Shown in pieces: positions 10,788-45,743 of a stretch of 64,000 bases of DNA (position 1 is its first letter; each line of letters starts with the position of its first letter). The notes beneath the pieces are model-generated. The model was not told where the DNA came from. It was given only the letters and a program-made list of their open reading frames with translations, and searched no databases. Location: sequence record PZ386955.1; one strand, given 5' to 3'. Source of the stretch: a phage. Position numbers and translations under genes: made by a program.

Positions 10788-11183
10788 TTATTTATTGTCA
10801 GCACTTAATTGTACTTTAATAAGGCAATTAGGGACACCATTGGTATTTCTCAAGCCTACACGTTCAATTTTAACTGTCCCTGTTAAGCCACTAAAAGTGG
10901 AAACAATGTTGTTAATGTTTTCATCCTTACTAGCGATATCAAGAACAACTTTATCACTAACATTTTTCAACATACGATCTACAAGCTCTCCCACAAAACC
11001 ACTGGTAGTTTGAATGAGAAGGTATAGGCAACCATCCTCAAACCACAAATGTTCACCATAAGCATAACCGTATGGTTCTAACTCCGATCCATCTTGAAAT
11101 TTAAACTTAGCAATAGTTTTCGTATAATCATACCCTAACGCATAAGGGGATACCCCATAGAGGATATTTTCGTTGTCTTTCAT
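10788..11183 (-). CDS. hypothetical protein
   Basis: Start reassigned to internal ATG at 11183 (AAGGAGAG SD) to remove overlap with primase-helicase. Confidence 0.5.
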   Translation of the reverse strand: MKDNENILYGVSPYALGYDYTKTIAKFKFQDGSELEPYGYAYGEHLWFEDGCLYLLIQTTSGFVGELVDRMLKNVSDKVVLDIASKDENINNIVSTFSGLTGTVKIERVGLRNTNGVPNCLIKVQLSADNK

Positions 11184-11193
11184 ATTTCTCTCC

Positions 11194-12966
11194 TTAATAA
11201 GAACCATCAGGAATATTCTCTGGGTTACTTGTGTATTGATCGTAATCGTGAAGTGTAGCTGTTTTAATCTCATAGAAGAAACTACCTGCTGCACCAGTCT
11301 CTGAGAACTCACGGTTCTTTAGAATGTAGCAATATGTGCGGTTACGTTCCATAGGATCTTCAGCTTGTTTATCACGCTCCAGCGCAATTGTGATACCAGC
11401 ACCTTTAGCAAGGAAGCTACTACCCATTGCATCATCTTCTACAATATGTTCATTACTATTGTTAGAAGACTTTTTAACGTGTGAAATTACAACAATGGTA
11501 ATTGCGTACTCTTTCATAATGCGTTTGAGCCACGTCGCAAGTTCCTCTTGTTGTGACACGTCCATACCAGAAAGCAAATCAGAATAAGGGTCGATAACAA
11601 GAATGGTTACTCCGAAATAAATAATCATTTCCAGAACCTTCTCTTTAATCACATCTACGTTAGCTCCACGATCATCACAAACATAGAAACGTGGTGTTCC
11701 ATCTTCCCGTTCGTAAAAATCACGAATCTTTTCTTCATTATCTTTTAAAATCTTTTCCTTCTCTTCTTTCGTTTTACGGTGAAGAGGGATATGCAAGAAT
11801 GAAGACAGTAAGTTACGAGAATACTTCTTATACGTTGCCTCCAAAGATAAAATACCAAGAGTATGTTCTGGGTGTGCAAGAATAATGTGCTTCGTAATCT
11901 CGTTAACCAACAGTGTTTTACCGATACTTGTTTTTGCAAGTATAACAGTAATTTCTTCTTCTACCAAGCCTCCACCTAACATATTAGAAGCAACACGCAT
12001 GAATGGAGGAAGGGTGATCATTTTAGCTTCCAGGCATTCCAAGGCTGCTTCATACAGTACGTTAGAAGCATAAACACCAGCAGGTGTGTACAGTTTAGCT
12101 TTGAAAAAGCGATCAAGAAAGTGATCAATTTTTCCTTCTACTAGTGCCTGGTTAGGATCTTTAACATCTGTTAGTTCCATCACGTAAACTTTATTACGTG
12201 GTAAGATTTTAACACATTTCTCAACTGCTGCACGTCCAGCTTCATCATTATCCATACATAGAACAATCTTTTTAAATTGATCTAAGAATTTATAACGATG
12301 TTGAAGCTGCTTATGCAGAGATGTTTCGCCACAAGTGCCAGATACTACAGCAGGAACAGGATATTTACCACCCTTGTTATAATCTTTTAGCATCTGTGTT
12401 GCAGCCAGCATATCGTGTTCACCACCAACGATTAGAATAGTACCGCTGTGGTTACGATATTTAAACTCCCCAAAAAGATCACAATCCTTTCCTGTTTCAC
12501 CGATAGGATGTGAGAAATCTTTTGGATCGATACGTTGTTTATACCCAGCAATATTGTAATCTTTAGTTGTAGGGTATAGTGTTGAAATTACTTCGCCAGT
12601 AGCTTCATCGTACATATAACGTACACCGAAAGGCTTAGAGATATCTTCACGAATACCGCGATAACCTTTTGGATTAGTTCCAGTGCTGGCTTTCAGTTTA
12701 TCATGTACTTCTGGATTAAACTCACTACCCAAGATATCCTCCTCTTCAATTTCTTCGCCGTGTGCATTTAACCATTTTTGATCAGGGATAGTAAAGCCAC
12801 AAGAAAAACAATGTGCGCCTCGATGGTCTTCATCGGCATCTAAGCCATATACCATCAAATTGTTTTGTGATCGATCACGCCCTCCTTTCATACAACGAGG
12901 ACACCCAGTATGTCCTTCTTGACTTAGATCAATATTATACCCATATTTATTTACAACATAAGACAC
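11194..12966 (-). CDS. DNA primase-helicase (T7 gp4-like: zinc ribbon, primase and DnaB-family helicase)
   Basis: N-terminal CPRC...CFSCG zinc ribbon; Walker A AKTSIGKT in C-terminal helicase half; 590 aa. Confidence 0.8.
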   Translation of the reverse strand: MSYVVNKYGYNIDLSQEGHTGCPRCMKGGRDRSQNNLMVYGLDADEDHRGAHCFSCGFTIPDQKWLNAHGEEIEEEDILGSEFNPEVHDKLKASTGTNPKGYRGIREDISKPFGVRYMYDEATGEVISTLYPTTKDYNIAGYKQRIDPKDFSHPIGETGKDCDLFGEFKYRNHSGTILIVGGEHDMLAATQMLKDYNKGGKYPVPAVVSGTCGETSLHKQLQHRYKFLDQFKKIVLCMDNDEAGRAAVEKCVKILPRNKVYVMELTDVKDPNQALVEGKIDHFLDRFFKAKLYTPAGVYASNVLYEAALECLEAKMITLPPFMRVASNMLGGGLVEEEITVILAKTSIGKTLLVNEITKHIILAHPEHTLGILSLEATYKKYSRNLLSSFLHIPLHRKTKEEKEKILKDNEEKIRDFYEREDGTPRFYVCDDRGANVDVIKEKVLEMIIYFGVTILVIDPYSDLLSGMDVSQQEELATWLKRIMKEYAITIVVISHVKKSSNNSNEHIVEDDAMGSSFLAKGAGITIALERDKQAEDPMERNRTYCYILKNREFSETGAAGSFFYEIKTATLHDYDQYTSNPENIPDGSY

Positions 12967-18429: not shown

Positions 18430-19026
18430 TTACTCGAACCAATCGTCGCCAGCGCCAAACGCTTTAACTACATCGTAAATGTCAAGCCCAGCTTTACCCA
18501 CACCATACGCTTTCAGTTTCCATTCGCTATCTTCTCGCACCAGGGAGGCAACGTGGCAAATGGTGTTACCTGCAAGTTCTGGAGCCAAGAAGTCAAAGTC
18601 CAGCAGTTCAACATTACGTTCATCATCGAAGATTTTAAGGAAACCTTCGGTAGCGTGACCAAGGCGTTTCTTACCCGTTTCGTCATCAATAGTAATTACG
18701 AATGCAATTTCCTGTGCTTCAGCAGAGATATTATCCAGTGTAACATCAATCTGCTCCATCTGTCCTACACCATCACGAACATCTTCACCTGCAAAAGTAG
18801 AACGTTCAGGATCAAATTTCTGCGCGTAGCACACCAGGTGACGAGGAGACAACAGTTCCGGCAGACCAGATGCATTGTGTCGGCAAATCAGAGCACTAAC
18901 ATCCAGATCCAGTTTTTCGTTAGATTTCCAAGAGAATTCCAGACGAATGCGTTTCAGTGCTGGTGCAATCTTTTTCAGAGAAACTTTTTCGCTAGAACCT
19001 TTTTTCAGGGAAATTTTCTGAGTCAT
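18430..19026 (-). CDS. TerD-family protein
   Basis: Blocks ISLKKGSSEKVSLKK, LDLDVSALIC, AGEDVRDGVGQMEQIDVTL, IAFVITIDD, SEWKLKAYGVGKAGL align with E. coli TerD blocks. Confidence 0.85.
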   Translation of the reverse strand: MTQKISLKKGSSEKVSLKKIAPALKRIRLEFSWKSNEKLDLDVSALICRHNASGLPELLSPRHLVCYAQKFDPERSTFAGEDVRDGVGQMEQIDVTLDNISAEAQEIAFVITIDDETGKKRLGHATEGFLKIFDDERNVELLDFDFLAPELAGNTICHVASLVREDSEWKLKAYGVGKAGLDIYDVVKAFGAGDDWFE

Positions 19027-19098: not shown

Positions 19099-19893
19099 TT
19101 ACGCTTTTGCTCCAAATTTTTTAACCCACTCACCAAACTCTTCGGATAGCAGTTTATCGTAAAGTTCTTCGTCAGACAAGGACAAATCTGCAATACCGAT
19201 AAAATCAACATTATCGTATTCTTTTGCCAAGTCTTTCAGGAATTTAAAGTTTGCATTACCTACACCAACCATAAACCAGTAAACAGGCGTATTGCGGTGT
19301 TTGTTCAGTAAGCTACGTACTGCTGAAGTATCCATGTTCTCCCCGTCAGTTTGGAAGAAAATCATTGCAGGAGTACGATCAACTTGTGCATCAGTATCTA
19401 CAACCTGTTCTACAACAGTACGTGTTACTTCTACAAGTTCTTTTTTACCAGTTAGTTTAGCAAGGAAACCTTTAGCCGGAACTTCTTCATACTCAACGAC
19501 TTCGCGTGTAATATTTTTCATAGGTACACTACCGAAGTATGTATCATAGATCTCTTGCATTACTGGAGCATAAGCAGTACCACCGTTGATGCAAACATTA
19601 GACATGCAAGAGCCGACATAATCATCATACACATCAGCCGTTGCAGGAGGCAGTTCAAAAGAAGAACTATTGAAAGCCCACATGTCAATCTGTGCATTAT
19701 CATCAAACTTCATACCAAACGGCAGCAGTTTACCTACAAAATCGCTAACAGTGCCATCACGATACAGCTCACACATACTACCCGAAATATCTAAGGCGCT
19801 ACCTACACGAAGAACAACATCGTTAATCTTTTTCTTACGCAGGGATACAGTAAGAGTTTCTTGACGTTTTTTAAGACTGATTTTATTGGACAT
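19099..19893 (-). CDS. von Willebrand factor A (vWA) domain protein, TerY-like
   Basis: MIDAS-type DISGSM motif. Confidence 0.5.
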   Translation of the reverse strand: MSNKISLKKRQETLTVSLRKKKINDVVLRVGSALDISGSMCELYRDGTVSDFVGKLLPFGMKFDDNAQIDMWAFNSSSFELPPATADVYDDYVGSCMSNVCINGGTAYAPVMQEIYDTYFGSVPMKNITREVVEYEEVPAKGFLAKLTGKKELVEVTRTVVEQVVDTDAQVDRTPAMIFFQTDGENMDTSAVRSLLNKHRNTPVYWFMVGVGNANFKFLKDLAKEYDNVDFIGIADLSLSDEELYDKLLSEEFGEWVKKFGAKA

Positions 19894-21139: not shown

Positions 21140-22243
21140 TTAAAGTAGACCACGTTTAACAGTTTGAATCATACCATCTTCAAGAGATTGCACTTCTTGA
21201 ATGTAATCAATACGCGCAGCACGGGCTTCAGTGTTGATTCGGTTAGTTTCTTCCAACATTTTAACTAAGTTTTCTTGATCGCGACGTAATGTTTCAATAT
21301 CCAATACTTGACGATTAGCAAGTTGTGTAGCTTCAATTTGGTTTTGTGCAGCCAGATCACTACCCATTGCAATAGCAGCATTAAATTCATTCAGCACATT
21401 GTTCTGTGTATCGGCTGCTTTCTTCTGGCGTAGACTTTCAATATACATAGAAAAGTTTGCAGAGTAAGCAGGGATAACATTATTCACAATATTACGGGCT
21501 GATCGCATCAAACTTGCAGATACTTTCTGCATACTTTGTACCCGTGGCCCCATCTGAACACACAGTAAACGCAAGGCTTTCAGGTCTGCAATACGAATTT
21601 CAAGCAGATCCATAGTATCACGAGTACGTTGACGCTCTTCTACTTCATTTTCAGGTAGTGTATTAAGGCGAACTTCTTCTTTTTCATAAGTAGCTGTTAG
21701 AAGCTCTATATCCCTGTTTAAGCTAAGAGCATATTTTGCAATAGCCTCTTCTAAACGTTGCAGATATCGTAAAGAATCTTCTTCTTTTTTCAAGTCTGTT
21801 TGTAGTGTCTTTACCAAACCTTCAATACGGTTATTGATGGTGTCAAATTCTCCAAACAAATCTTCTTTCATACCTAATACTTTCTTAACTAGTTTACCTA
21901 AGCCTTTAGATTGTTTAATAGAGTTAGGATCAAGTTGCTTTGCTTGCTTAATAAGTGCAGTTAAACGTTCACTCATTTCATCCCCCTGAGATGAACGCTG
22001 GTGTTTAAGCACTTCAGCATTAAGGTTACGAAGAGTAAGTCCTGCATCAGCACCAACTTGTTCAATCTCTTCACGAGACATTGGAGGCAGCATTTGTACA
22101 GGTCGTGCAACAGCAGGGGCATATACAGGGCTTGCATCCATAGCACTTGGAGCAAACAAAGACTTACTTTTTTCTGTTGTTGCCGTGAATACACTCATTT
22201 CAGACGGTTTGCTTTTTACGGCACTGATAAAAGGACTGGACAT
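21140..22243 (-). CDS. coiled-coil protein, possibly TelA-like (toxic anion resistance family)
   Basis: 367 aa, helical/coiled-coil composition, size and Ter-gene context; no diagnostic motif confirmed. Confidence 0.35.
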   Translation of the reverse strand: MSSPFISAVKSKPSEMSVFTATTEKSKSLFAPSAMDASPVYAPAVARPVQMLPPMSREEIEQVGADAGLTLRNLNAEVLKHQRSSQGDEMSERLTALIKQAKQLDPNSIKQSKGLGKLVKKVLGMKEDLFGEFDTINNRIEGLVKTLQTDLKKEEDSLRYLQRLEEAIAKYALSLNRDIELLTATYEKEEVRLNTLPENEVEERQRTRDTMDLLEIRIADLKALRLLCVQMGPRVQSMQKVSASLMRSARNIVNNVIPAYSANFSMYIESLRQKKAADTQNNVLNEFNAAIAMGSDLAAQNQIEATQLANRQVLDIETLRRDQENLVKMLEETNRINTEARAARIDYIQEVQSLEDGMIQTVKRGLL

Positions 22244-23995: not shown

Positions 23996-24018
23996 CAAAG
24001 CCCCCGAAGGGGCTTAAT
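23996..24018 (-). terminator. rho-independent terminator
   Basis: Hairpin AAGCCCCTTCGGGGGCTT followed by TTTGTT on minus strand, downstream of TerC-family gene. Confidence 0.6.
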
Positions 24019-24021
24019 GAA

Positions 24022-24999
24022 TTAAGCAACAGTCTGGTCTTCTTTTTCAGGGAAGATTAAACTTGCAATAACACCCAACCCAAGAGTACCTAACACGATA
24101 TACATACTGATCGTCGGGTCAATGTGTGCTGGCAGGAAACTCATTTTTGCGTGCAGAGTTTCTGCAAACGGATGATACATCAGTTTTACACCCACAAACA
24201 CCAAGACTACGATAACTGCTTTCTCCAGATGAACCAAATACTTCAGTGCAACACTAAGAACAAAGAACAGAGCACGTAAACCTAAGATTGCACAGAGCAT
24301 CGAAGAGAACACCAGCAGAGGTTCTTGTGTCACTGCAATTACTGCTGGAACAGAGTCTACTGCAAAGATTACGTCAACCATTTCCATTACAAACACACAA
24401 ACCAGAGCCGGAGTTGCTACACGAACACCATTTTTGATTGTGAAGAACTTCTCACCATCCATCTGATCAGATACAGGGAACAGCTTACGAACAATGCGAG
24501 TAGCCCAGTGTTTAGAGTAATCAACTTCTGCATCATTATCTCCAGCGAATACCATTTTAGCCGCACAGAAAAGGATGACAGCACCGAAGAAGATATTAAC
24601 ATACCAGCCCAAACTCAACAAGTAAGTGCCTACTGCTACAAACACACCTCGGAAGACAATCGCACCTGCAATACCCCAAAGTAGAATCTTGTGTTGTAAG
24701 TGTGTGCTTTTAATACCAAAACTTGCGAATACTGCCACAAATACTACTAAGTTATCTACAGAAAGAGATTTCTCCAACACATACCCACTCAAGAACAAGC
24801 TCGCAAAATCAGCACCGTGTTGGAAGTATACAAAACCATAGTAGGCTAATGATACTCCAATCCAGAAAATTGACCAGCCAATTGCAGATTTAAATGAAAT
24901 TTCTTTGTTTTCTCTGTGTCCAAAGAAGTCAATACAAATCGACAAGACTAAAATACCCACTAAAACAACCACATCAATAATTGGGAAACCCAGTTGCAT
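24022..24999 (-). CDS. TerC-family integral membrane protein
   Basis: Multi-pass hydrophobic; YVLEKSLSVDNLVVF matches TerC signature. Confidence 0.75.
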   Translation of the reverse strand: MQLGFPIIDVVVLVGILVLSICIDFFGHRENKEISFKSAIGWSIFWIGVSLAYYGFVYFQHGADFASLFLSGYVLEKSLSVDNLVVFVAVFASFGIKSTHLQHKILLWGIAGAIVFRGVFVAVGTYLLSLGWYVNIFFGAVILFCAAKMVFAGDNDAEVDYSKHWATRIVRKLFPVSDQMDGEKFFTIKNGVRVATPALVCVFVMEMVDVIFAVDSVPAVIAVTQEPLLVFSSMLCAILGLRALFFVLSVALKYLVHLEKAVIVVLVFVGVKLMYHPFAETLHAKMSFLPAHIDPTISMYIVLGTLGLGVIASLIFPEKEDQTVA

Positions 25000-25076
25000 T
25001 CTTTTCTCCTCTTTAATGCGGAGGACAATCCTCCGCTCTATGTCTTATACTATAAACTGTTTTTAAAGAAAGTCAA

Positions 25077-25325
25077 CTAGTTCAGTTCTGTAATTTTAAG
25101 TTTATCTTCTTTGTTAATGATAGGGAAAGCTACAGCATCACCTACATCATCAATAAAGCAAATAGCAAGACCACCTTCCACTTTGCTAACCTGACCATTA
25201 AAGGCATGATACGGGGCAGGAACTTCATCTCCATCTTCAATGAGAATAGCCTCGTAAACCTTGCCGATAGTACAATCACGGGTGTTTATAAATTTTTCAA
25301 GCACTTCAACATTTACTTTACGCAT
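25077..25325 (-). CDS. hypothetical protein
   Basis: 82-aa ORF. Confidence 0.45.
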   Translation of the reverse strand: MRKVNVEVLEKFINTRDCTIGKVYEAILIEDGDEVPAPYHAFNGQVSKVEGGLAICFIDDVGDAVAFPIINKEDKLKITELN

Positions 25326-25339
25326 ATAAAGATCCTCTC

Positions 25340-25546
25340 TTATTTGTTAGATTGAAAGATACCACGGAGTACCGCAAGAATGAACGTCACACAGACTACA
25401 CTCCAAAACGTTACAGGAACATGATGCCAGTCTAAGCCGATAATGTCAATCATATAATTGTATGCTAAAAGCAGTAGCCAACTAGGGATTAACACAATCA
25501 AGAACACAACAATAAAACAACCTAATACTGCTAAAACACCTGCCAT
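25340..25546 (-). CDS. small membrane protein
   Basis: 68 aa, two hydrophobic segments. Confidence 0.4.
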   Translation of the reverse strand: MAGVLAVLGCFIVVFLIVLIPSWLLLLAYNYMIDIIGLDWHHVPVTFWSVVCVTFILAVLRGIFQSNK

Positions 25547-25555
25547 ACTTTCTCC

Positions 25556-26272
25556 TTATTTCAGTTTGTAAACAATTACATTTAAACCTTTGTTTACTAG
25601 AGTTTCTTCGATCATAAGTTTTACAATATTCCAAGAACCTCCAGCCAAACCACAACCAAGCATTGGTAAACCTACAATTTTACCGCCTGAAGATACAACA
25701 TCGTCTCCCATACTATCTAGCGCATTGTAGATAGCTTCATAATTCAGGTCACGCTTACCTTCCTCACGACGACTATAACCATATTGTCCATATAAATTAT
25801 AAATTGTCAAATTGTTTTCTGTATATTTGGTAAACGTACCTAATTTTTTATAATCACCACGTTTAGTGGCACAATCTGCTTTAAACGCACCAGGCCACTT
25901 GCTTTTAATTTTTGGTGCAATACCACTACCCATAGTGCAAAAACAGTTACAGCAGTGTGCTATAGCGTCTATATCGCCTCTCTCGGCTGCTGCTAAAAGA
26001 TCACCGTATACCTCAATGATACCTGCTGGATAACTTGTTACAATTTCATCTTCCCAGTACATTTTCTCTACACCACCGATCAGTGCAAAGTTTTGTGTAA
26101 TGCGATCATCAATATAGTTAAGACCTGAAACATACACAGCGTATTCATCCTGTGCTGTAATACCTTGCACACGAATTCTTAAGACACCATCTTTATCTGT
26201 TGCTACACGCCCAAAATCTTTTTCTGTAATATTGGTGATAGGATCTCCGAAAGTCATTACTTTATTAGACAT
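25556..26272 (-). CDS. macro-domain protein (ADP-ribose binding/processing)
   Basis: DIDAIAHCCNCFCTMGSGIAPKI and IVGLPMLGCGLAGGSW resemble macro blocks; start at ATG 26272 with SD. Confidence 0.55.
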   Translation of the reverse strand: MSNKVMTFGDPITNITEKDFGRVATDKDGVLRIRVQGITAQDEYAVYVSGLNYIDDRITQNFALIGGVEKMYWEDEIVTSYPAGIIEVYGDLLAAAERGDIDAIAHCCNCFCTMGSGIAPKIKSKWPGAFKADCATKRGDYKKLGTFTKYTENNLTIYNLYGQYGYSRREEGKRDLNYEAIYNALDSMGDDVVSSGGKIVGLPMLGCGLAGGSWNIVKLMIEETLVNKGLNVIVYKLK

Positions 26273-27122
26273 AATAATCCCCTTTAACATTAGATTTGTT
26301 GATAATGTTGCTTTCAAAAAATTGACGTAGGAAATCAAAGTTCTCTTTGTATTTTTCAATGTTATTGTAACCTTCTGCAAGGCAACCAAAGAACAGTTGT
26401 TCTACATAATACAAAGGAAGTTGTGAAAGTGCAATTTTAAAATCAACTTCGCTTTGACTCATTAGATACTTAATAGGACGAACCAAACATTTAGCATCAG
26501 TTTCTTGCTTAATCATTTTAATAAAAGCTGCCAGATTATTGATATAGTTGAAGTTAAGTGCAGCTTCGGTATTGGCTTCTGTACCTTCATACTTTGCAAA
26601 GTACAGGAAAAACGTATCGTTTTCAACACCTTCTTTGTCTAAAATTTCAATAAGTTTTTCTTCGTGCGTTCCTGTAATATTAACATCATCAATGAAAATC
26701 AGAGTTTTATTACCCCAGAAATCACGATTGATAGAGAAAGTGTCACCATCGATCAAAGCCTTACGATCTTCTTTGCTAAGAAATCCATAATCATTGATAT
26801 AGCTCACTTTACGATGAACGATATCCCACTCCACTGGTTTACCACCTTTGATAGAGATTAGGTAGTTGAGGTGATCTACAAAATGTTCAGATAACACTGT
26901 AGCTGCATTTTTCACATAGTTATATGGAGATGGAATAACAACAAAACTTTCATTTACCAGTCGTTCTTCATACTTAGAAAAGAAACTTTCAGCCAGAATG
27001 CGCCCCATTCTTTTTGCTGCCTGGTTACTACCAAACTTTAGCTTGGAATAATCTGCAATGTTAAATTTTGCTTCCTTCAGGTTAGTAAAAGTATTAGCAA
27101 AATGTTGAATTTGATTACGCAT
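26265..27122 (-). CDS. phosphoribosyltransferase-like protein
   Basis: KTLIFIDDVNITGT resembles type I PRTase PRPP-binding motif. Confidence 0.4.
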   Translation of the reverse strand: MRNQIQHFANTFTNLKEAKFNIADYSKLKFGSNQAAKRMGRILAESFFSKYEERLVNESFVVIPSPYNYVKNAATVLSEHFVDHLNYLISIKGGKPVEWDIVHRKVSYINDYGFLSKEDRKALIDGDTFSINRDFWGNKTLIFIDDVNITGTHEEKLIEILDKEGVENDTFFLYFAKYEGTEANTEAALNFNYINNLAAFIKMIKQETDAKCLVRPIKYLMSQSEVDFKIALSQLPLYYVEQLFFGCLAEGYNNIEKYKENFDFLRQFFESNIINKSNVKGDYYV

Positions 27123-27771
27123 TAATAAGTTCCTCTTTTTTAAGTTTAGCCAACAAGTCTTCTGGATTAATAATATGACAGAACTTCATCCCTATGTCAA
27201 CAGCTTTTCCATCATAAATCAAACTATCTCCAACGTGTAAAATCTCCTCTGGTGCAAGATCAAACGTCACCATTTCATCAAAAGAGAGTTTAAAAAACCT
27301 AGGATCTGGTTTACACAAGCAAAACTCGTCAGAAAAATGCATAAAGTCGAATGGTAATTTTGTTAAACCAGAATATACAGCTAAGAAACTACCTGGTACA
27401 AAATTAGTATTGCTCTTAATACTCAAAGAATAGGTTGAACTTAGCTCTTCCAACTTCTTGCAAAGTTCAGGATTCAATGTTGGAGGATGTTTTATAAACA
27501 TTGCTAAACAGTCTCTTTTTAACCCATCCACTTTATCAAGATCAATGTTCAAACGAGTAGAAAGTGTAACCCAAGCATCCTTAGACGTTCCACAAATGCC
27601 TTTTTCTGCTTTTAAATCCAAGAGGGTTTTTACCTCTTTATATACGGTAGCTGCTTCTACCTCAGAACAAGAGGCATACTCGGCAATGACCTTGTTGCGC
27701 TCTTCTGCATACAAAGGGTTAGCAGTAATAAGAGTATTCCATACATCAAAAGAAATATGCTTAACAGTCAT
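27115..27771 (-). CDS. HAD-superfamily hydrolase
   Basis: FDVWNTLI (motif I-like), CKPDPRFF (motif III), HVGDSLIYDG (motif IV); GGAGGA SD before ATG 27771. Confidence 0.5.
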   Translation of the reverse strand: MTVKHISFDVWNTLITANPLYAEERNKVIAEYASCSEVEAATVYKEVKTLLDLKAEKGICGTSKDAWVTLSTRLNIDLDKVDGLKRDCLAMFIKHPPTLNPELCKKLEELSSTYSLSIKSNTNFVPGSFLAVYSGLTKLPFDFMHFSDEFCLCKPDPRFFKLSFDEMVTFDLAPEEILHVGDSLIYDGKAVDIGMKFCHIINPEDLLAKLKKEELINA

Positions 27772-27940
27772 TTTTAATCCTCCGTCCAAAAGAATATCAT
27801 CTGCTTAATTTTATTGATCTCTTGATGTAGTAACTTTCCAGCATGTGATTGATCTTTAATATTGACAGCAAGAATTTCAAGTTCCGTTAGTTTTTCTTGG
27901 ATAGCTTTATATTCATCATCTGTAAGCATTTTCTTCCCCT

Positions 27941-28144
27941 TTAGAATGGTAATCTTTGTATGTCACTTATACCCACACCAAGAAGTCTAGCAATATCCTT
28001 ATCTAAAAGCAACTCTTTTTGTTCTAAAATGTTAATCAGATCTCCTAATACTTCTTTAATGTCACGATCATTTTTAGCAACGTGACCACCTGCCGTATCA
28101 ACTTTATCTTTAAAAACAAAGTAATGATCCATAATACCCTCCAT
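27941..28144 (-). CDS. hypothetical protein
   Basis: 67-aa ORF. Confidence 0.4.
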   Translation of the reverse strand: MEGIMDHYFVFKDKVDTAGGHVAKNDRDIKEVLGDLINILEQKELLLDKDIARLLGVGISDIQRLPF

Positions 28145-28149
28145 ATAAA

Positions 28150-28175
28150 TAAAGGAGGCTTTCGCCTCCTTTTAT
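28150..28175 (-). terminator. rho-independent terminator
   Basis: Hairpin AAAGGAGGC(TTTC)GCCTCCTTT. Confidence 0.6.
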
Positions 28176-28178
28176 CAC

Positions 28179-29339
28179 TTAGTAAGAACGACCACCAAAC
28201 ACATACTCTGTGTAGTTTTTACGTTCTTTGTTTTTAATAACAACTTCAATGTTGTTGCCTTTATCATCGGTGAACACAAAGTGATAACCGTCACCACCCA
28301 TTGTACGGATGTGTTTTTCATCATACGTCAGCAAGATACGGTCTACACCCCAGTAGTAGTCACCTTCTTCATCTTTATCTTCTACGGTAACGACTCCTTC
28401 CATTTCAGGAAGATGCTCTTCTCCTAGCTTATGGTCTACAGCTACAACATAACGATTACCGCTAAACAAACCCTGTGCTGTCATACCGTCAATATCGGTA
28501 TCTGCCGAAACATCTCCTGTACGGTCTACACCGTTGACTTTCAGAAGTTTAACTTCTTTTGCAGCATAGCGGTGTTCAGTAATACTGATACCCATTAATG
28601 CAAGTGCATCAGAGAATTTGTCATTAGGGTAACGGTTAAGTTCTTCTACTAAGGACTGAACAATATCAAAGTTCAAATCCACGGAAAGATTATAAAGCGT
28701 TTCAAAATCTGGTAAAAAGGCTTTGTTCTCCAGATTTTTAGCCAGATAGTCATCCATAGTAGCTTTAGGTAGTTTCTTATAGCTAAAGCTGTAGAAAATA
28801 CGGCTAGGACGATTACGCAAAAATTCTGATACATAACCATCATTTTTAGTCAATACAAACAGCTTGTCATAGCCACCAACACCATCCAGCAGGGTAAGCA
28901 AACCATCCTGTGCATCTTTTTCAGCATACAGTTTATCAAATTCATCGATCATAATCATCACAGGTTGTGTGATTTTAGACATAAAATTGATAAAGCCTTC
29001 ACCATTAAAAGCACTACCGATAGAAATAGTAGGAATACCCATTTCACGAAGAGCAGAAGACAGCATTTTAGCTTGCAAAGTTTTACCGCTACCCTTCGTA
29101 CCCTCAAGGAGAACACCTGTGTTTTTACCTTTGCGGCTAAGGAACGTCTTGATAATACGTTCTGATTTATCATCAGTATCACCGTATGTTACTGAAGGGA
29201 CTTCCATATCGTTTTTAGGATACAGGAAGAACTCACCACTTTGAGTAACACCTACACCAAAAGTTCCTGCTGGAATTTCTTCGATATCTGTACCAGACTT
29301 CTGACGCAGGAAGATTTGATTGCCGAATACTGTAAACAT
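28179..29339 (-). CDS. AAA+ ATPase, paralogue A
   Basis: Walker A GTKGSGKT, Walker B IMIDEFDK, LLTLLDG; N-terminal 250 aa paralogous to 43581-45191. Confidence 0.6.
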   Translation of the reverse strand: MFTVFGNQIFLRQKSGTDIEEIPAGTFGVGVTQSGEFFLYPKNDMEVPSVTYGDTDDKSERIIKTFLSRKGKNTGVLLEGTKGSGKTLQAKMLSSALREMGIPTISIGSAFNGEGFINFMSKITQPVMIMIDEFDKLYAEKDAQDGLLTLLDGVGGYDKLFVLTKNDGYVSEFLRNRPSRIFYSFSYKKLPKATMDDYLAKNLENKAFLPDFETLYNLSVDLNFDIVQSLVEELNRYPNDKFSDALALMGISITEHRYAAKEVKLLKVNGVDRTGDVSADTDIDGMTAQGLFSGNRYVVAVDHKLGEEHLPEMEGVVTVEDKDEEGDYYWGVDRILLTYDEKHIRTMGGDGYHFVFTDDKGNNIEVVIKNKERKNYTEYVFGGRSY

Positions 29340-29359
29340 AGTTTTCTCCTCTATTTAAT

Positions 29360-29830
29360 TTAGTCAGATTCCCAAATGTTGTCTTTCTTAATCCACATTC
29401 GTTGATTATCTGAACCTCTATAACGTTTCGTTGTTGGTTGATTCATATCATACTTACCATCTATCACTATGTCAACCAGTTTTTTAATTTTTTCTGGAAT
29501 TTCCTCAAAAAGATATCCTGTATATAAGACAATATCTTTTTTGTTTCCAAAACAATCTCTTACCTTCTCAAGAACATACTCTACAGTGTCAATGTTCTCT
29601 TTGTCAAGAGGTTCACCACCTAAAACTGTTAATCCTTTAATGAAAGGTCGAGATAAATCTTTCAAGATAAGACCTAATGTTTCAGTAGTGAACTCTTGTC
29701 CGTAGTTATACGACCAGGCTTTCTGGTTAAAGCAGCCACGGCAACCGTGGCTACAACCGCTCACCCACAAAGAGCATCTTACACCGTCACCGTTGAGCAT
29801 GTCAACAGGTTCATATCCGGCGTAATTCAA
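29360..29830 (-). CDS. nrdG: anaerobic ribonucleotide reductase activating protein (radical SAM)
   Basis: CSHGCRGC cluster near N-terminus; 156 aa; immediately downstream of nrdD. Confidence 0.85.
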   Translation of the reverse strand: MNYAGYEPVDMLNGDGVRCSLWVSGCSHGCRGCFNQKAWSYNYGQEFTTETLGLILKDLSRPFIKGLTVLGGEPLDKENIDTVEYVLEKVRDCFGNKKDIVLYTGYLFEEIPEKIKKLVDIVIDGKYDMNQPTTKRYRGSDNQRMWIKKDNIWESD

Positions 29831-31626
29831 AAATGTTTCTCCCTTTCTAGTACCTCTTGCATTTTACCTTTATTATAAGGGCGAGAGTTAGGGGCAGACA
29901 GGTATCCTGACACTCTTCTGATTACAGATATAGATTCTTCCTCATGATTGCCACAACTTGGACACTCGAAGCCTTTAGCTGTTGCCTTAAATTCACCATG
30001 AAAACCACATTTGAAACACTGATCTACAGGTTGGTTCACGCCAAAATAAGGAATTTTGTTGTAGGCATAATCTACAAGGGTTTCCAGTGCTTGCAAGTTA
30101 TTTTTAAGGTTTGGTGTTTCTACATAACCTATGTTCCCACCATTACTGATTTGTGCAAAACCTTCCTCATAATCCCACTTTTGGAACGGGGTAGTGTGCA
30201 TCCATACAGGTTGATGGAAAGAGTTTGTCAAGTAGTCACGATCAATAGAACCAGGATAGCGATCATTTAATGCTTTGGCAAATTTATAGCACAAGGATTC
30301 TGCTGGTGTTCCATACAAACTAAAAGCTAAACCAGAACGTTCTTTAAATGTGCCACAGATATCCTTCATATATTGAAGGATGTTTTTACCCATTGCTTTT
30401 GGATTGGTGTTACCTGGGTATAAAATCTCCATAGCTTCTGCTAAACCTACATAACCGATACTAATAGAGGCATAACCACCTTCGAATAGTTTACCAATCT
30501 CTTCATTAGCTTCTAGTCGAGCTAAAGCCCCTTCCATAAACAATGTAGGGTTTTGAGATGCTTTGGTATGTCTAATACGGTTAACACGTAGCATATGTGC
30601 CTTATACGCCATCTCCATATGTTGTTCCAACAGTTCAGTAAATAAGATGCCCTTTTCACGGGACTCTGCTGCAATGATAGGTAAGTTTAAAGAAACTACG
30701 CCTAAGTTGAAACGACCATCATATTTTTCACCCTGCTCTGTTGCATAGTATGACAAGAAGCTACGGCAACCCATGCTTGTGACGCGACCATCTGAAGATC
30801 CTGTAACTTCTTTGTTTAAAGGTACAGAGATAAAATCAGGATAAATGCGTTCAGCACAACACTCCATTGCCAGTTGCTTCAAATCATAATTTGGATCGCC
30901 AGCTTTCATGTTAACACCATCTTCCAAGAAGAAGATAACTTTAGGAAACACAGGAGTTACCCTATCTTTTCCCAACCCTTGTTTGTGCACCATTAGGTAG
31001 TTTTTAGTGATCATTCTACCAAAAGCAGAGGTATCCAAACCTAAACTAATTGTTATAAAAGGTGACTGACCATTTACACTCATTAGAGTGTTCACCTGGT
31101 AGATTAAAGTTTGCATTGCATCATAGACCTGTTTATCTACCATACGCATAGCAATATCATAATCGCCAACATCGGCATATATTTTATTAAAACTTGCTTT
31201 AACGTATTGACTAAGCCCAGTATCAACATGTGCACAAGTTTGTCCACCATATTGGCTAGAAGCTACTGCTTGAATAATTTGAGTTAGGACAGTAGTCGCT
31301 ACACCGATAGATTTTGGTTTTTCAATATGTGCATTACCAATACGGAAACCGTTCTCAAGCATATCTTGGTAATTTACCAGGCAACAATTAGTTAAAGGTG
31401 AGAGTAAATAATCTAAATCGTGAATGTGACCATACCCACTTTTATGCCATTCTGCCAGATCTTCCGGTAAAATATGGGTCATTGCCATGTGCTTGCTTAG
31501 GATACCTGCTAGTAAGTCTCGGTGAGTATTAACAATCATTGCAGGTTTGTTTGCATTTTCACGAGTAAATTCTTCGGATGTTTGTTCGAGGAATCCGATT
31601 ACATCCTCATATAGTTTTTGGGTCAT
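29827..31626 (-). CDS. nrdD: anaerobic ribonucleoside-triphosphate reductase
   Basis: C-terminal glycyl-radical motif RRVSGYL and CxxC...CxxC zinc site; start reassigned to ATG 31626 (GGAGGA SD). Confidence 0.9.
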   Translation of the reverse strand: MTQKLYEDVIGFLEQTSEEFTRENANKPAMIVNTHRDLLAGILSKHMAMTHILPEDLAEWHKSGYGHIHDLDYLLSPLTNCCLVNYQDMLENGFRIGNAHIEKPKSIGVATTVLTQIIQAVASSQYGGQTCAHVDTGLSQYVKASFNKIYADVGDYDIAMRMVDKQVYDAMQTLIYQVNTLMSVNGQSPFITISLGLDTSAFGRMITKNYLMVHKQGLGKDRVTPVFPKVIFFLEDGVNMKAGDPNYDLKQLAMECCAERIYPDFISVPLNKEVTGSSDGRVTSMGCRSFLSYYATEQGEKYDGRFNLGVVSLNLPIIAAESREKGILFTELLEQHMEMAYKAHMLRVNRIRHTKASQNPTLFMEGALARLEANEEIGKLFEGGYASISIGYVGLAEAMEILYPGNTNPKAMGKNILQYMKDICGTFKERSGLAFSLYGTPAESLCYKFAKALNDRYPGSIDRDYLTNSFHQPVWMHTTPFQKWDYEEGFAQISNGGNIGYVETPNLKNNLQALETLVDYAYNKIPYFGVNQPVDQCFKCGFHGEFKATAKGFECPSCGNHEEESISVIRRVSGYLSAPNSRPYNKGKMQEVLEREKHF

Positions 31627-31642
31627 TAATCCTCCGTGGAAA

Positions 31643-31670
31643 ATAAAAGCCAGCATTAAGCTGGCTTTAG
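31643..31670 (-). terminator. rho-independent terminator / attenuator upstream of nrdD
   Basis: Hairpin AAAGCCAGC(ATTA)GCTGGCTTT. Confidence 0.5.
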
Positions 31671-33961: not shown

Positions 33962-35698
33962 TTAGTTTACCAGTTTATTTATATCTGGTAAAAGATTTAT
34001 TTCACCTAAAAAATCACCTTCACCTTCCTCTAACCAACTCTCATATGCTTGTGCATGATTATAGTTACCATCAAAAGAATCTGCAACAAATTTTTCTACA
34101 GCTTTTCGAGATGTGCCAGCGCCAAATACACCAAGTTTAATACCATTGATCGGTAAAGTGGTACTTGTGGGTACTTTCTCTGTTGCAACACGGTTGATAT
34201 CTATAATCTCCTGTACGGTTGTGTTCCATTGTAAGCATTTAACACAACGGGTATGCGCTACATACAGTAGGTTTCGCTCTGCCTCTTCCAGTCCTACCCA
34301 TTCACCAGTCTTTTTATCATAGTTGGAAGGAAAATCATTAGCAACAATAACCTGATCCCACTCCAAACCTTTAGACTTGTGTGCTGTAGTAAGTGTGACT
34401 TTTGCTGTAGGAGAATTTCTGTGCGTTCTAAGTGTATGTGCTATGGTGTTCGCCTTACCAGAAACTACGATGTTTAACAAGCGTTTAGCATCTGGATCAG
34501 CCTCTGCACACTCAACAAATTCATCCCAGTCTGCGTAAGGTAATACAGTTTCATGTTTTACTTTCTCAATATCTCCTCTACGAAGAGCATTAACACTATC
34601 TACCATAGAGATAAAATCCCTGGTATCTACGTTAATAATAATTTCTTCCCCATCTGCAATACGATCCATTGCCTCCATAAGCAAGGTTAAATTCTTGCGA
34701 AAGATGATAGTGTAAGGTTTTGTATAGTCTACAACATCTGATTTGTAGCTACCTACTACAGTATCAAAGCCTTTACCAACCAAAGGGTGACGCAAAGGTT
34801 CTTTATCGCTTAAAATCATATTGGCAATGTTTGCCACTTTTGGGCCAAAACGGAAGCAAGCAGTTAATGGAAGCTCTGCCCCATATGTAGATGTTTCCTT
34901 CATCATATTTTGGCTTCCACGGAACTGGTAGATGCTCTGATATTCGTCACCCACCACTACTACTTGTTTTGCAGATTTAGCATTTCGCAGAATAGACAAG
35001 AATGCAGGGTTAACATCCTGGAATTCATCACCAAAAATAATATCATAACCAAGATCAGCACCAGACAATTCAAACAATTTTACATAGGTGTCATGCGTCA
35101 TCAAAGTATCTGTGTTAGGATCGATGCGCTCTCGCCACAATTGTTTTGCATACTTAACTACTTCTGTAATTAGTTTGTGTTCGTTAATACCTTTTCTTTT
35201 AATATCTGCAAGATGTACACTAGGAAAATGTTTACGGCTGATAAAAGGATCATCCGAAAATTCAAACTTACCTACGGTTTGTTTGATCATTAAACCAATC
35301 ATAGCACGAGTTAAAAGTGTTTTCCCTCGTTTATCAATAAGATTATTAATCTTAAATTTCTTTGCTATTTCGCTACCTGTACCTGCAACGTTAACATACT
35401 GTCCTTCTGGTCGTGACAGTTTTGCACGTAAACGATGATCCAGGAATTGATAGCAAATAGAATGCAATGTACGGCATTCTACATTTAGTGGCATCTTACG
35501 TCGTGCTTCTTCTGCCATGCTTTTATTGAAAGCTAAGTAAAGAATGCGATCTTCTGTACTGTTAGCCAGCAAATAAAGTGTTGACGTTTTGCCTGATCCA
35601 GATTTAGCTTGGATAGTTAAAAAGCGATGGTCTGGAAAAGCCTCCTTAATAGCTGTTTGCTCTTCTGTTGGAGTGAAGCTCAACTCTTTCTTAGCCAT
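33962..35698 (-). CDS. superfamily 1 DNA helicase (UvrD/Rep-like)
   Basis: Motif I AKSGSGKT, motif II GDEFQDVN, motif III VVVGDEYQSIYQFRGS; start at ATG 35698. Confidence 0.8.
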   Translation of the reverse strand: MAKKELSFTPTEEQTAIKEAFPDHRFLTIQAKSGSGKTSTLYLLANSTEDRILYLAFNKSMAEEARRKMPLNVECRTLHSICYQFLDHRLRAKLSRPEGQYVNVAGTGSEIAKKFKINNLIDKRGKTLLTRAMIGLMIKQTVGKFEFSDDPFISRKHFPSVHLADIKRKGINEHKLITEVVKYAKQLWRERIDPNTDTLMTHDTYVKLFELSGADLGYDIIFGDEFQDVNPAFLSILRNAKSAKQVVVVGDEYQSIYQFRGSQNMMKETSTYGAELPLTACFRFGPKVANIANMILSDKEPLRHPLVGKGFDTVVGSYKSDVVDYTKPYTIIFRKNLTLLMEAMDRIADGEEIIINVDTRDFISMVDSVNALRRGDIEKVKHETVLPYADWDEFVECAEADPDAKRLLNIVVSGKANTIAHTLRTHRNSPTAKVTLTTAHKSKGLEWDQVIVANDFPSNYDKKTGEWVGLEEAERNLLYVAHTRCVKCLQWNTTVQEIIDINRVATEKVPTSTTLPINGIKLGVFGAGTSRKAVEKFVADSFDGNYNHAQAYESWLEEGEGDFLGEINLLPDINKLVN

Positions 35699-35699
35699 T

Positions 35700-36176
35700 T
35701 CAACCTCTCTTAATTTGTTTAACAAGCATAGGAACAAAATCTCGTTTTAAAATTTGTTCAATAATATGATCAGGTAGCTGTTGGAAATTATAATTAAAAG
35801 CTACTGTCTCACCTTTAGGTGTTTCTACCCGCACATATAACATGTTACGAAGTTTATCCACTTGTGCTGTATATTCTAAACCATGTAATTGATGCATTGC
35901 AAACATCAAATCATCAGTTTCAGTTTGGAATCTATCATTTGCTTGCATTAAAGACAAGGTAAAAGGTAGATTTTCCCTAAGAGCCACCTTCTTAGGAACT
36001 AGTGAAGGAAAATACTCACCAATAACTTCCTGTGTAAGCTGGATACACTCTTTTTCAAGTTGGTTTTGTTCCTTAAGTTCACAAACACTTTTTTGTAAAG
36101 TGTTAACCTCTTTTTGCAAAGCTGCTAGTTGAGCACTTAACTTTCTTTTTTGATTACGACCAAAACGTTTAGACAT
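35700..36176 (-). CDS. hypothetical coiled-coil protein
   Basis: 158-aa ORF. Confidence 0.5.
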   Translation of the reverse strand: MSKRFGRNQKRKLSAQLAALQKEVNTLQKSVCELKEQNQLEKECIQLTQEVIGEYFPSLVPKKVALRENLPFTLSLMQANDRFQTETDDLMFAMHQLHGLEYTAQVDKLRNMLYVRVETPKGETVAFNYNFQQLPDHIIEQILKRDFVPMLVKQIKRG

Positions 36177-45191: not shown

Positions 45192-45743
45192 ATGCGGATT
45201 ACTGATAAGTATGTGTTCTTCTTCTCGGCAAAAGATGAATTTAGCAACTGGTATCTATCATCTTTTATTGAACCTTTAGCTCCCAAGTATAATAATTCTA
45301 TTACAAGTTCTGTTGAATTTACTTGTGTGGAACAATATATGATGTGGAGAAAAGCATGTTTGTTTTATGATTACAACATTGCATCTTCTATTTTAACCGG
45401 AGATCTAAGATATACAGGAGAAAAAGAACAGGCATATTATAAGCGACTAGGCAGATTAGTTAAAGATTATGATGAAGATACCTGGGCTTCTTTACGGGAG
45501 AAGATTGTCAAGCGTGGTTTGTATCTTAAATACACACAAAATGAAGATCTCAAAAATAAACTTATAGCTTACGCAGATAAGGAGTTTGTAGAGGCAAGTC
45601 CTTATGATTCTATTTATGGTATCAAAATGGGGATGTGGGATCGGGACGTGGAAAATAAGGATTGTTGGAAAGGACAAAATCTTTTAGGAAAATGGCATAC
45701 AGACCTTGCTGTTTATCTAAAATCACAATCTGATATTTCCTGA
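45192..45743 (+). CDS. NADAR-family protein (YbiA-like ADP-ribose N-glycosidase fold)
   Basis: Blocks FFFSAKDEFSNW, FTCVEQYMMWRKACLFYD, EASPYDSIYGIKMG match E. coli YbiA/NADAR blocks; start overlaps stop of upstream ATPase gene. Confidence 0.8.
   Translation: MRITDKYVFFFSAKDEFSNWYLSSFIEPLAPKYNNSITSSVEFTCVEQYMMWRKACLFYDYNIASSILTGDLRYTGEKEQAYYKRLGRLVKDYDEDTWASLREKIVKRGLYLKYTQNEDLKNKLIAYADKEFVEASPYDSIYGIKMGMWDRDVENKDCWKGQNLLGKWHTDLAVYLKSQSDIS

Follow-up and report, generated by a model that had tools for sequence, protein, structure and literature searches.

Three consecutive genes that encode a HAD-superfamily hydrolase, a ComF-like type I phosphoribosyltransferase (PRTase) of the PRTase_3 family, and a macrodomain protein are located on the minus strand at positions 25556 to 27771 of sequence record PZ386955.1, a 64,000-nucleotide (nt) stretch of phage DNA (hereafter, the window). 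The window is that of a phi92-like Justusliebigvirus, a coliphage; in nucleotide comparisons, positions 24000–29400 presented 99.4% identity to Escherichia phage Antha and 98.3% identity to phage phi92, and about 70 other Justusliebigvirus (Stephanstirmvirinae) records matched the same positions at 95% or more. The HAD gene (27115–27771; 218 amino acids (aa); phi92 gp187 homolog) comes first in the direction of transcription and is followed by the PRTase_3 gene (26265–27122; 285 aa; gp186 homolog) and the macrodomain gene (25556–26272; 238 aa from an ATG; gp185 homolog); a longer macrodomain open reading frame (ORF) starting from a TTG at 26389 differs from the gene annotated in phi92. The HAD stop and the PRTase start overlap by 8 nt (ATGCGTAA, 27115–27122), as do the PRTase stop and the macrodomain start (ATGTCTAA, 26265–26272), and the HAD/PRTase overlap suggests translational coupling. 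An earlier note, made from the letters of this stretch, had described three consecutive overlapping genes here, and this arrangement is what we found.

In phi92, the counterparts of these genes are annotated as “phosphatase” (gp185; Tk.4-like), “putative orotate phosphoribosyltransferase” (gp186), and “hydrolase” (gp187), and the BASEL phage EmilieFrey (Bas61) carries the labels “putative macrodomain protein”, “putative phosphoribosyltransferase”, and “putative HAD-like superfamily protein” for the same trio. The domain identities of all three genes and the predicted link to Ter genes were already public. Literature searches that combined Stephanstirmvirinae or Phapecoctavirus with macrodomain, PRTase, and tellurium yielded no paper that dealt with these three genes in its title or abstract, and searches on phi92 with macrodomain and on PF15610/PRTase_3 found nothing. 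Details that may be new are the near-universal order of HAD before PRTase_3 with overlapping stop and start, the HAD–PRTase_3 fusions, the invariant Trp two residues after the HAD nucleophile (position D+2), and the SCO6735-type (Gln) active site in a phage macrodomain family; these details sharpen hypotheses that can be tested but do not amount to a novel type of system. Separately, records labeled “Campylobacter phage” (A150, A145, C3, and B15; host C. jejuni; MG065639, MG065645, and others) are 98% identical to Justusliebigvirus or Phapecoctavirus genomes of E. coli phages and probably represent mislabeled or contaminant phages.

Conservation of the HAD and PRTase_3 gene pair

PRTase_3 loci were taken from viral contigs, a species-level genome collection, and metagenome assemblies, and their six-frame ORFs were searched with the window proteins. 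In 40 of the 41 loci, the gene directly upstream of PRTase_3 encodes a HAD homolog, and the HAD stop overlaps the PRTase start in 31 of these 40. The pair was found in phages (Phapecoctavirus, Klebsiella phages, the jumbo Xanthomonas phage XaC1, and Caulobacter, Brevundimonas, and Rhizobium phages) as well as in bacteria, including Rhizobium and Ensifer chromosomes and plasmids, metagenome-assembled genomes (MAGs) of Bacteroidales, a Peribacteria MAG, and the actinobacterium Pedococcus. Among the PRTase_3 cluster representatives described below, we also identified single-chain fusions of approximately 490–545 aa, with HAD N-terminal to PRTase_3 and both domains recognized by Pfam (P0309, P0328, P0383, P0411, and P0424); the fused HAD domains are of the DxW type. 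One protein (P0305) presented the arrangement PRTase_3–HAD–PRTase_3, and four further metagenomic proteins with PRTase_3 show HAD motifs by eye. Because the gene order is conserved, the stop and start overlap, and the two domains occur as one chain, these comparisons represent strong genomic evidence that the HAD and PRTase_3 proteins act together.

The pair was also observed in other settings. In XaC1-like jumbo phages, it is followed by a gene encoding a DUF2828/DUF7788 protein of about 530 aa (8941–10527 in locus L003; 8967–10562 in locus L004) and is surrounded by an RNA-repair-like set of genes (RNA ligase, CCA-adding enzyme, 2H-like phosphoesterase, NUDIX, YqeY, and ribosome hibernation factor), with no Ter genes adjacent. 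A gene for a ClpP-like peptidase is located within about 3 kilobases (kb) of the pair in seven loci (L036, at 10908–11591, as well as L013, L014, L030, L031, L034, and L037); it is found 3′ of PRTase_3 in Sinorhizobium/Ensifer loci, whereas two viral contigs have it about 2.9 kb upstream of the pair, and none of these loci has Ter genes nearby. A ClpP-like gene adjoins the pair in Rhizobium and Ensifer loci. In a Dysgonomonas MAG (L042, 4585–8307), the pair is located downstream of genes encoding a PP2C phosphatase, a Ser/Thr kinase, and a SUKH-family protein, a setting that resembles the TerY-P kinase/phosphatase context rather than the TerD/TerC context.

The PRTase_3 protein

The PRTase matched PF15610 (PRTase_3, “PRTase ComF-like”) over residues 16–265 with 143 bits (cutoff 28.7). 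Its loop for phosphoribosyl pyrophosphate (PRPP), LIFIDDVNITGT (residues 141–152), consists of a hydrophobic strand, two acidic residues, and then T-G-T; residues D145, D146, T150, and G151 are invariant in 22 homologs with 44–81% identity to the window protein, and many other polar residues beyond this loop are invariant in the same 22 homologs. A PDB sequence-profile search yielded only marginal HGPRT matches (E ~0.2), so placement of this protein needed fold comparison; the predicted model presented a type I PRTase fold nearest to ComFC, with the core fold as well as the pyrophosphate loop, flexible loop, and hood. No NCBIfam model matched the PRTase, and no PADLOC model matched the PRTase, the HAD protein, or any Ter protein. 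An exhaustive profile search of 1.84 billion proteins returned only 839 cluster representatives for the PRTase_3 family. Three metagenomic proteins carry three tandem PRTase_3 domains (P0365, 927 aa; P0391, 952 aa; and P0435, 1153 aa, whose C-terminal end is a DxD-type HAD-like region), and Pedococcus has two adjacent PRTase_3 paralogs; the family tends to be prone to duplication.

The HAD protein

The HAD protein scored 26.2 bits against PF00702, just below the cutoff of 26.4; this borderline call is backed by a full-length match (5e-8) to PDB entry 2om6 (Pyrococcus horikoshii PH0253), by several matching NCBIfam HAD-IA models, and by homologs that exceed Pfam cutoffs (e.g., a Dysgonomonas protein with 61.6 bits for HAD_2). 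The protein also matched phrog_14393 (7e-119). Together with the scores for the other two genes, these matches bear out the macro-like, PRTase-like, and HAD-like assignments of the earlier note. Its catalytic motifs are FD9-V-W11-N-T13 (motif I), S120-N (motif II), K154 (motif III), and G-D182...D187 (motif IV); the KPDP and GD...D motifs, which the earlier note had pointed to along with the PRPP loop, are present as KPDP (residues 154–157) and GDSLIYD (residues 181–187). The nucleophile D9 was found in all 41 intact homologs and S120 in all 43 sequences, and T13, K154-P155, and G-D182...D187 are conserved. Position D+2 (W11) is occupied by Trp in 40 of 41 homologs and by Tyr in the other one, and never by Asp.

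In HAD phosphatases and mutases, the Asp at D+2 serves as the general acid/base. Burroughs et al. reportedly described in 2006 that residues other than Asp are found at this position in P-type ATPases, phosphonatases, and dehalogenases. The acidic pair in motif IV argues for Mg-dependent phosphoryl transfer over dehalogenation in the window protein, and, with no general acid at D+2, the enzyme may use a substrate whose leaving group is a good one or may form a phospho-enzyme that is long-lived.

The macrodomain protein

The gp185 homolog matched Pfam Macro with 31.3 bits (2e-7; cutoff 22) and belongs to phrog_335. Residues 83–238 form a macro domain of the ALC1-like class, of the SCO6735/BT1257 type, while residues 1–82 (26026–26272, minus strand) represent a lineage-specific extension that is present in about 70 records, all Justusliebigvirus, and in one metagenomic protein with 53% identity; the model of this extension, which only two of the sequences compared carry, was a beta-rich prediction of low confidence (predicted local distance difference test score 28–62). 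The best sequence matches in PDB (3e-15 to 5e-15) include SCO6735 (5e3b; 3e-15), BT1257 (2fg1), and TARG1, and in Foldseek comparisons TARG1 was matched with a template modeling score of 0.90, with BT1257, DarG, and SCO6735 among the top 13 matches and Poa1p also among the fold matches. The PADLOC DarG model was matched in its macro part only (1e-13), and the NCBIfam model antitoxin_DarG was matched with 48.9 bits (cutoff 250) over model positions 4–147 of 338; the window protein has no DarG C-terminal DarT-binding domain, and no DarT gene is adjacent to it (its neighbors being the PRTase gene and small ORFs).

Across 34 homologs, Q163 and N109 never vary and H106 hardly does; these residues align to Gln85, Asn27, and His24 of SCO6735, and the GxGLAGG loop is conserved. 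The Lys84/Asp125 dyad of TARG1 is replaced by Gln163/Ala210, and Lys80 of DarG is likewise absent; the roles of these residues, as well as the essential role of Gln85 in SCO6735, have been described previously (PMC9411070). On DNA modified by DarT, SCO6735 efficiently strips off thymidine-linked ADP-ribose, and protein that is ADP-ribosylated on Glu/Asp is a further substrate (PMC9411070); by analogy, gp185 is most likely an ADP-ribosylglycohydrolase acting on DNA or protein. On alignment, catalytic or ligand-binding residues were conserved in all three proteins of the trio; the one exception is the second Asp of HAD motif I, which is absent.

The window also contains a gene for a NADAR protein (182 aa; 45192–45740, plus strand; PF08719, 2.5e-36), which is probably a homolog of AdfN from Bas60. 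The NADAR protein AdfN of the Bas60, Bas61, and Bas62 group counters DarTG1, as shown for the Bas60 version (PMC11825919); this BASEL group includes EmilieFrey (Bas61), which is closely related to the window phage. NADAR and the macrodomain may thus give the phage a pair of ADP-ribose erasers, with gp185 plausibly acting as a thymine-specific complement of NADAR. The macrodomain is a plausible candidate anti-DarTG2 factor in a phage group studied for therapy, where it would complement the NADAR anti-DarTG1 factor.

Association with Ter genes

Ter genes are located within 7 kb of the HAD–PRTase_3 pair in a number of loci (TerD in 12, vWA-TerF in nine, TerC in seven, and TelA in seven). In Pedococcus, the gene order is TelA, TerD, x, TerD, TerC/DUF475, vWA-TerF, TerD, TerD, HAD, PRTase_3, and PRTase_3, which is the gene set of the phage. 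The phage database has 157 records with PRTase_3 and 148 with TerD, with near-identical organism breakdowns, and in XaC1 and CcrPW the pair is not beside Ter genes, yet TerD is present elsewhere in the genome. In 2012, Anantharaman, Iyer, and Aravind (Mol Biosyst 8:3142) predicted that Ter loci are tied to the synthesis of a “nucleoside-like metabolite”, as summarized in papers that cite them (PMC8115787, PMC4633105). The tie between PRTase plus HAD and Ter that the earlier note had raised is supported by the adjacency in 40 of 41 loci, the fusions, and the recurrent Ter neighbors, and it agrees with this published prediction. Among plasmids (PLSDB), PRTase_3 is confined to those of Rhizobium, Sinorhizobium, and Hymenobacter and is found on none of the enterobacterial ter plasmids. 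We therefore rejected the idea that the phage obtained the gene by plain copying of a host ter island.

The window trio is placed between a block of AAA ATPase and NrdDG genes and four Ter genes, all on the minus strand. These four genes encode a TerC-family membrane protein of the Alx subfamily (24022–24999; PF03741, 1e-38), a TelA-family protein (21140–22243; PF05816, 5e-34), a vWA-TerF-like protein (19099–19893; PF10138, 1.2e-38), and a TerD-domain protein (18430–19026; PF02342, 5e-28), so that the Ter-like neighbors reported in the earlier note are present. The TerC protein scored 322.8 bits (cutoff 246.4) against TIGR03718, “TerC/Alx family metal homeostasis membrane protein”, and it may be a transporter of Mn2+ or another metal rather than of tellurite.

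Two small ORFs homologous to gp189 (~63 aa) and gp188 (51 aa) are located upstream of the HAD gene in the same packed unit (27774–28132, minus strand), as identified from the ORF list and by comparison with phi92; among the loci compared, gp189 homologs are confined to Stephanstirmvirinae-like loci. The same comparison identified two small ORFs downstream of the macrodomain gene and before TerC (25077–25546, minus strand), homologs of gp184 (68 aa, hydrophobic) and gp183 (82 aa). A sequence scan found a terminator-like hairpin, AAAGGAGGCGAAAGCCTCCTTT, with a T-rich tail 3′ of the AAA ATPase gene (28151–28172, minus strand), and phage Paula has an annotated terminator at the equivalent position; this hairpin is the probable upstream limit of the HAD/PRTase/macrodomain unit. 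A promoter scan was uninformative (53 sites versus 43 ± 7 expected).

Elsewhere in the window, NrdD is encoded by a single 609-aa ORF (29827–31656, minus strand) where phi92 is annotated with a split or spliced NrdD, and an ORF for a UvrD-like helicase (33962–35737, minus strand) has 1,776 nt as compared to 2,775 nt in phi92; these differences suggest that phi92 has acquired mobile elements (intron or intein) at sites where the window phage has none. The guanine-cytosine skew turns from negative to positive near 42 kb, which fits a switch of the main coding strand there.

Interpretation of the three genes

We read the three genes as two functional units, a HAD–PRTase_3 cassette and a separate macrodomain, which this phage lineage would transcribe together, and we give this reading a probability of about 0.6. 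The first unit (gp187 followed by gp186) would be an ancient coupled cassette that accompanies Ter systems and is also found alone. The ComF-like PRTase would move 5-phosphoribose from PRPP to a nitrogenous nucleophile, and the Mg-dependent HAD protein would then take the phosphate off the PRTase product, leaving a riboside or the “nucleoside-like” metabolite predicted for Ter loci. Conversion of PRPP plus a base to a ribotide and then to a riboside would be the most economical mechanism, with a single non-canonical feature, the Trp at D+2. The second unit, gp185 of the Tk.4 family, would remove ADP-ribose from DNA (thymidine-linked, DarT2-type) or from proteins, in anti-defence or repair, independently of the first unit. 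The data presented here establish domain identities, conserved residues, gene order, fusions, and distribution, and from these we infer the enzymatic activities, substrates, and biological role of both units.

Several findings weigh against this reading. The HAD protein does not have the D+2 general acid usual for alcohol phosphate esters such as a 5′-nucleotide and is non-canonical in this respect; the nucleotide-to-nucleoside phosphatase step proposed in the earlier note is plausible but would be non-canonical, given the invariant Trp at the motif I position where a general-acid Asp is expected. The pair also occurs with no detectable Ter genes nearby, for example in Rhizobium replicons and in CcrColossus, and the organism groups listed for TerD include neither Rhizobium nor Brevundimonas phages, so the link to Ter is not obligatory. 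Literature searches returned no measured activity for the trio or for any PRTase_3 member; for ComFC itself, the closest solved relative of the PRTase, transferase activity has not been demonstrated, and the protein may be a ligand-binding or regulatory domain (PMC9005727). Finally, the macrodomain gene is translationally coupled to the PRTase gene in the window phage through the 8-nt overlap, and it stays downstream of the PRTase gene across Justusliebigvirus, Phapecoctavirus, and related Klebsiella phages; because of this coupling and the retained order, a lineage-specific functional link between the macrodomain and the pair may exist.

The earlier note suggested a single small-molecule pathway, in which the PRTase forms a ribotide, the HAD protein dephosphorylates it, and the macrodomain binds or processes an ADP-ribose-like derivative, as a signal or for salvage. 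The 8-nt overlaps at both junctions, in a packed unit downstream of the terminator-like hairpin, would fit this scheme, as would the HAD–PRTase–macrodomain order, which is kept in Phapecoctavirus, whose PRTase is 65% identical, and in related Klebsiella-phage contigs, where an insertion is present. Some macro domains act on small molecules, such as O-acetyl-ADP-ribose and ADP-ribose-1″-phosphate, and the small-molecule macrodomain Poa1p is found among the fold matches. However, the loci in which the macrodomain gene follows the PRTase gene are all Stephanstirmvirinae-like (one MAG contig, contigs resembling Klebsiella phages, Justusliebigvirus, and Phapecoctavirus), and in about 33 other loci it is not beside the pair; two jumbo-phage loci have a macrodomain gene 7–8 kb from the pair, and the remaining loci have none within 10 kb. 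Because it is confined to one viral subfamily, this adjacency can be explained by shared descent. Moreover, phage records with the macrodomain family outnumber those with the PRTase about 18-fold (2,909 versus 157), with homologs that include T4 tk.4 and members from Felixounavirus, rV5-like phages, and Pakpunavirus, almost all of them without PRTase_3. No macrodomain fusion was found among the representatives whose domains were examined, although HAD–PRTase_3 fusions were found, and the closest characterized relatives of the macrodomain act on DNA- or protein-linked ADP-ribose. We consider a single pathway unlikely, and the macrodomain as its third step is the part of the earlier proposal that these data do not support.

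A role of the PRTase as a sensor rather than an enzyme is quite unlikely. PRTase_3 would here be a PRPP or nucleotide sensor (like ComFC, PurR, or PyrR) or would act on single-stranded DNA, RNA, or protein, and the HAD protein would serve as its phosphatase partner or, in the manner of a phospho-relay, feed a TerD/vWA/TerC complex. Against this, the full catalytic PRPP loop and many polar residues are invariant in the 22 homologs, the ComFC zinc finger is absent along with any N-terminal Cys, and tight pairing and fusion with a hydrolase are typical of consecutive metabolic steps.

More speculative, and improbable in our estimate, is that the Stephanstirmvirinae trio represents a PRPP-dependent, NAD-independent ribosylation cycle, in which the PRTase would mark a base (free or in nucleic acid) by phosphoribosylation, the Trp-type HAD protein would trim the 5′-phosphate, and the DarG/SCO6735-like macrodomain, of a type that recognizes glycosidic adducts of ribose and base, would read or erase the mark, possibly under a TerD/vWA/TerC complex. 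In a modest version of this idea, the six-gene Ter set of the phage could be the smallest natural maker of the predicted Ter metabolite.

Rebuilding of NAD+ (nicotinamide adenine dinucleotide) or salvage of ADP-ribose in infection, as a counter-defence like the NAD+ reconstitution pathways (NARPs), is very improbable: a macro domain adjoins a PRPP-using enzyme, and in Rhizobium phage RHph_Y65 the pair is two genes away from a nicotinamide mononucleotide (NMN) adenylyltransferase/NUDIX gene, but the three proteins matched only Macro, PRTase_3, and HAD profiles and no NARP enzyme family, PRTases for nicotinamide and nicotinate are structurally of another class (NadV TIM barrel), and an NMN phosphatase would oppose NAD+ synthesis. 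The salvage role raised in the earlier note has no support, as the enzymes that define NARPs, namely Adps plus Namat, Nampt plus NMNAT, or PnuC plus NadR for NARP1/2/3 (PMC13464706, PMC9503650), are absent among the three genes; identity with NARP3 was rejected because NARP3 consists of PnuC and NadR.

The HAD–PRTase_3 pair bears on Ter loci, which are widespread in pathogens and have been linked for decades to tellurite, colicin, and phage resistance. A lytic coliphage carries a stripped-down Ter set, composed of TerD, vWA-TerF, TelA, an Alx-type TerC, and the HAD–PRTase_3 pair. This set is convenient for finding the predicted Ter metabolite, with two enzymes to express, culturable phages (BASEL), and fused single-chain proteins.

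Comparison with known systems

The Ter-associated module of 2012, as set out in the citing papers, resembles the phage locus in having PRTase and HAD genes side by side near TerD, TerC, TelA, and vWA genes. Anantharaman et al. are said to have found that the large enterobacterial ter locus also includes ATP-grasp and HpcH/CitE-like enzymes. The version in the window is minimal, with no other biosynthetic enzyme among the flanking ORFs scanned; ATP-grasp and HpcH/CitE-like enzymes were not detected among the ORFs scanned at 17.7–33.7 kb, a scan that did not include some small ORFs.

For the PRTase, the nearest fold is that of Helicobacter pylori ComFC (PDB 7p0h), which has only 12% sequence identity to PRTase_3. 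A four-Cys N-terminal zinc finger is a described feature of ComFC (PMC9005727), whereas the N-terminal region of PRTase_3 has no Cys and all Cys residues of the window protein are in its C-terminal third (motifs AKCLVRP and GCLAEG); instead of the zinc finger, PRTase_3 has a C-terminal helical domain of about 100 residues, and, unlike ComFC, it has no competence context. The best solved relative of the HAD protein is PH0253 (2om6), a member of HAD subfamily IA that was deposited under the label “probable phosphoserine phosphatase”; its motif I (FDVWNTL) is identical to that of the window protein.

The macrodomain shares its fold, the Gln, the His/Asn pair, and the GxGLAGG loop with SCO6735 and BT1257, and it differs from SCO6735, BT1257, DarG2, and TARG1 by its 82-residue N-terminal extension. 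T4 Tk.4 belongs to the same family (tblastn with T4 tk.4, 1e-9; phrog_335, 7e-65), for which the PHROG 335 term “phosphatase” is an annotation label only; T4-type Tk.4 proteins are single-domain proteins of about 150 aa and are not located beside PRTase or HAD genes. A macrodomain protein of chimalliviruses, AdfM, counters DarTG2 (PMC13309987); AdfM belongs to the DarG type and has Lys as a catalytic residue (K78), whereas the window macrodomain is of the SCO6735 type with Gln. Like AdfM and AdfN, the window macrodomain is an orphan, antitoxin-like predicted ADP-ribosylglycohydrolase carried by a phage.

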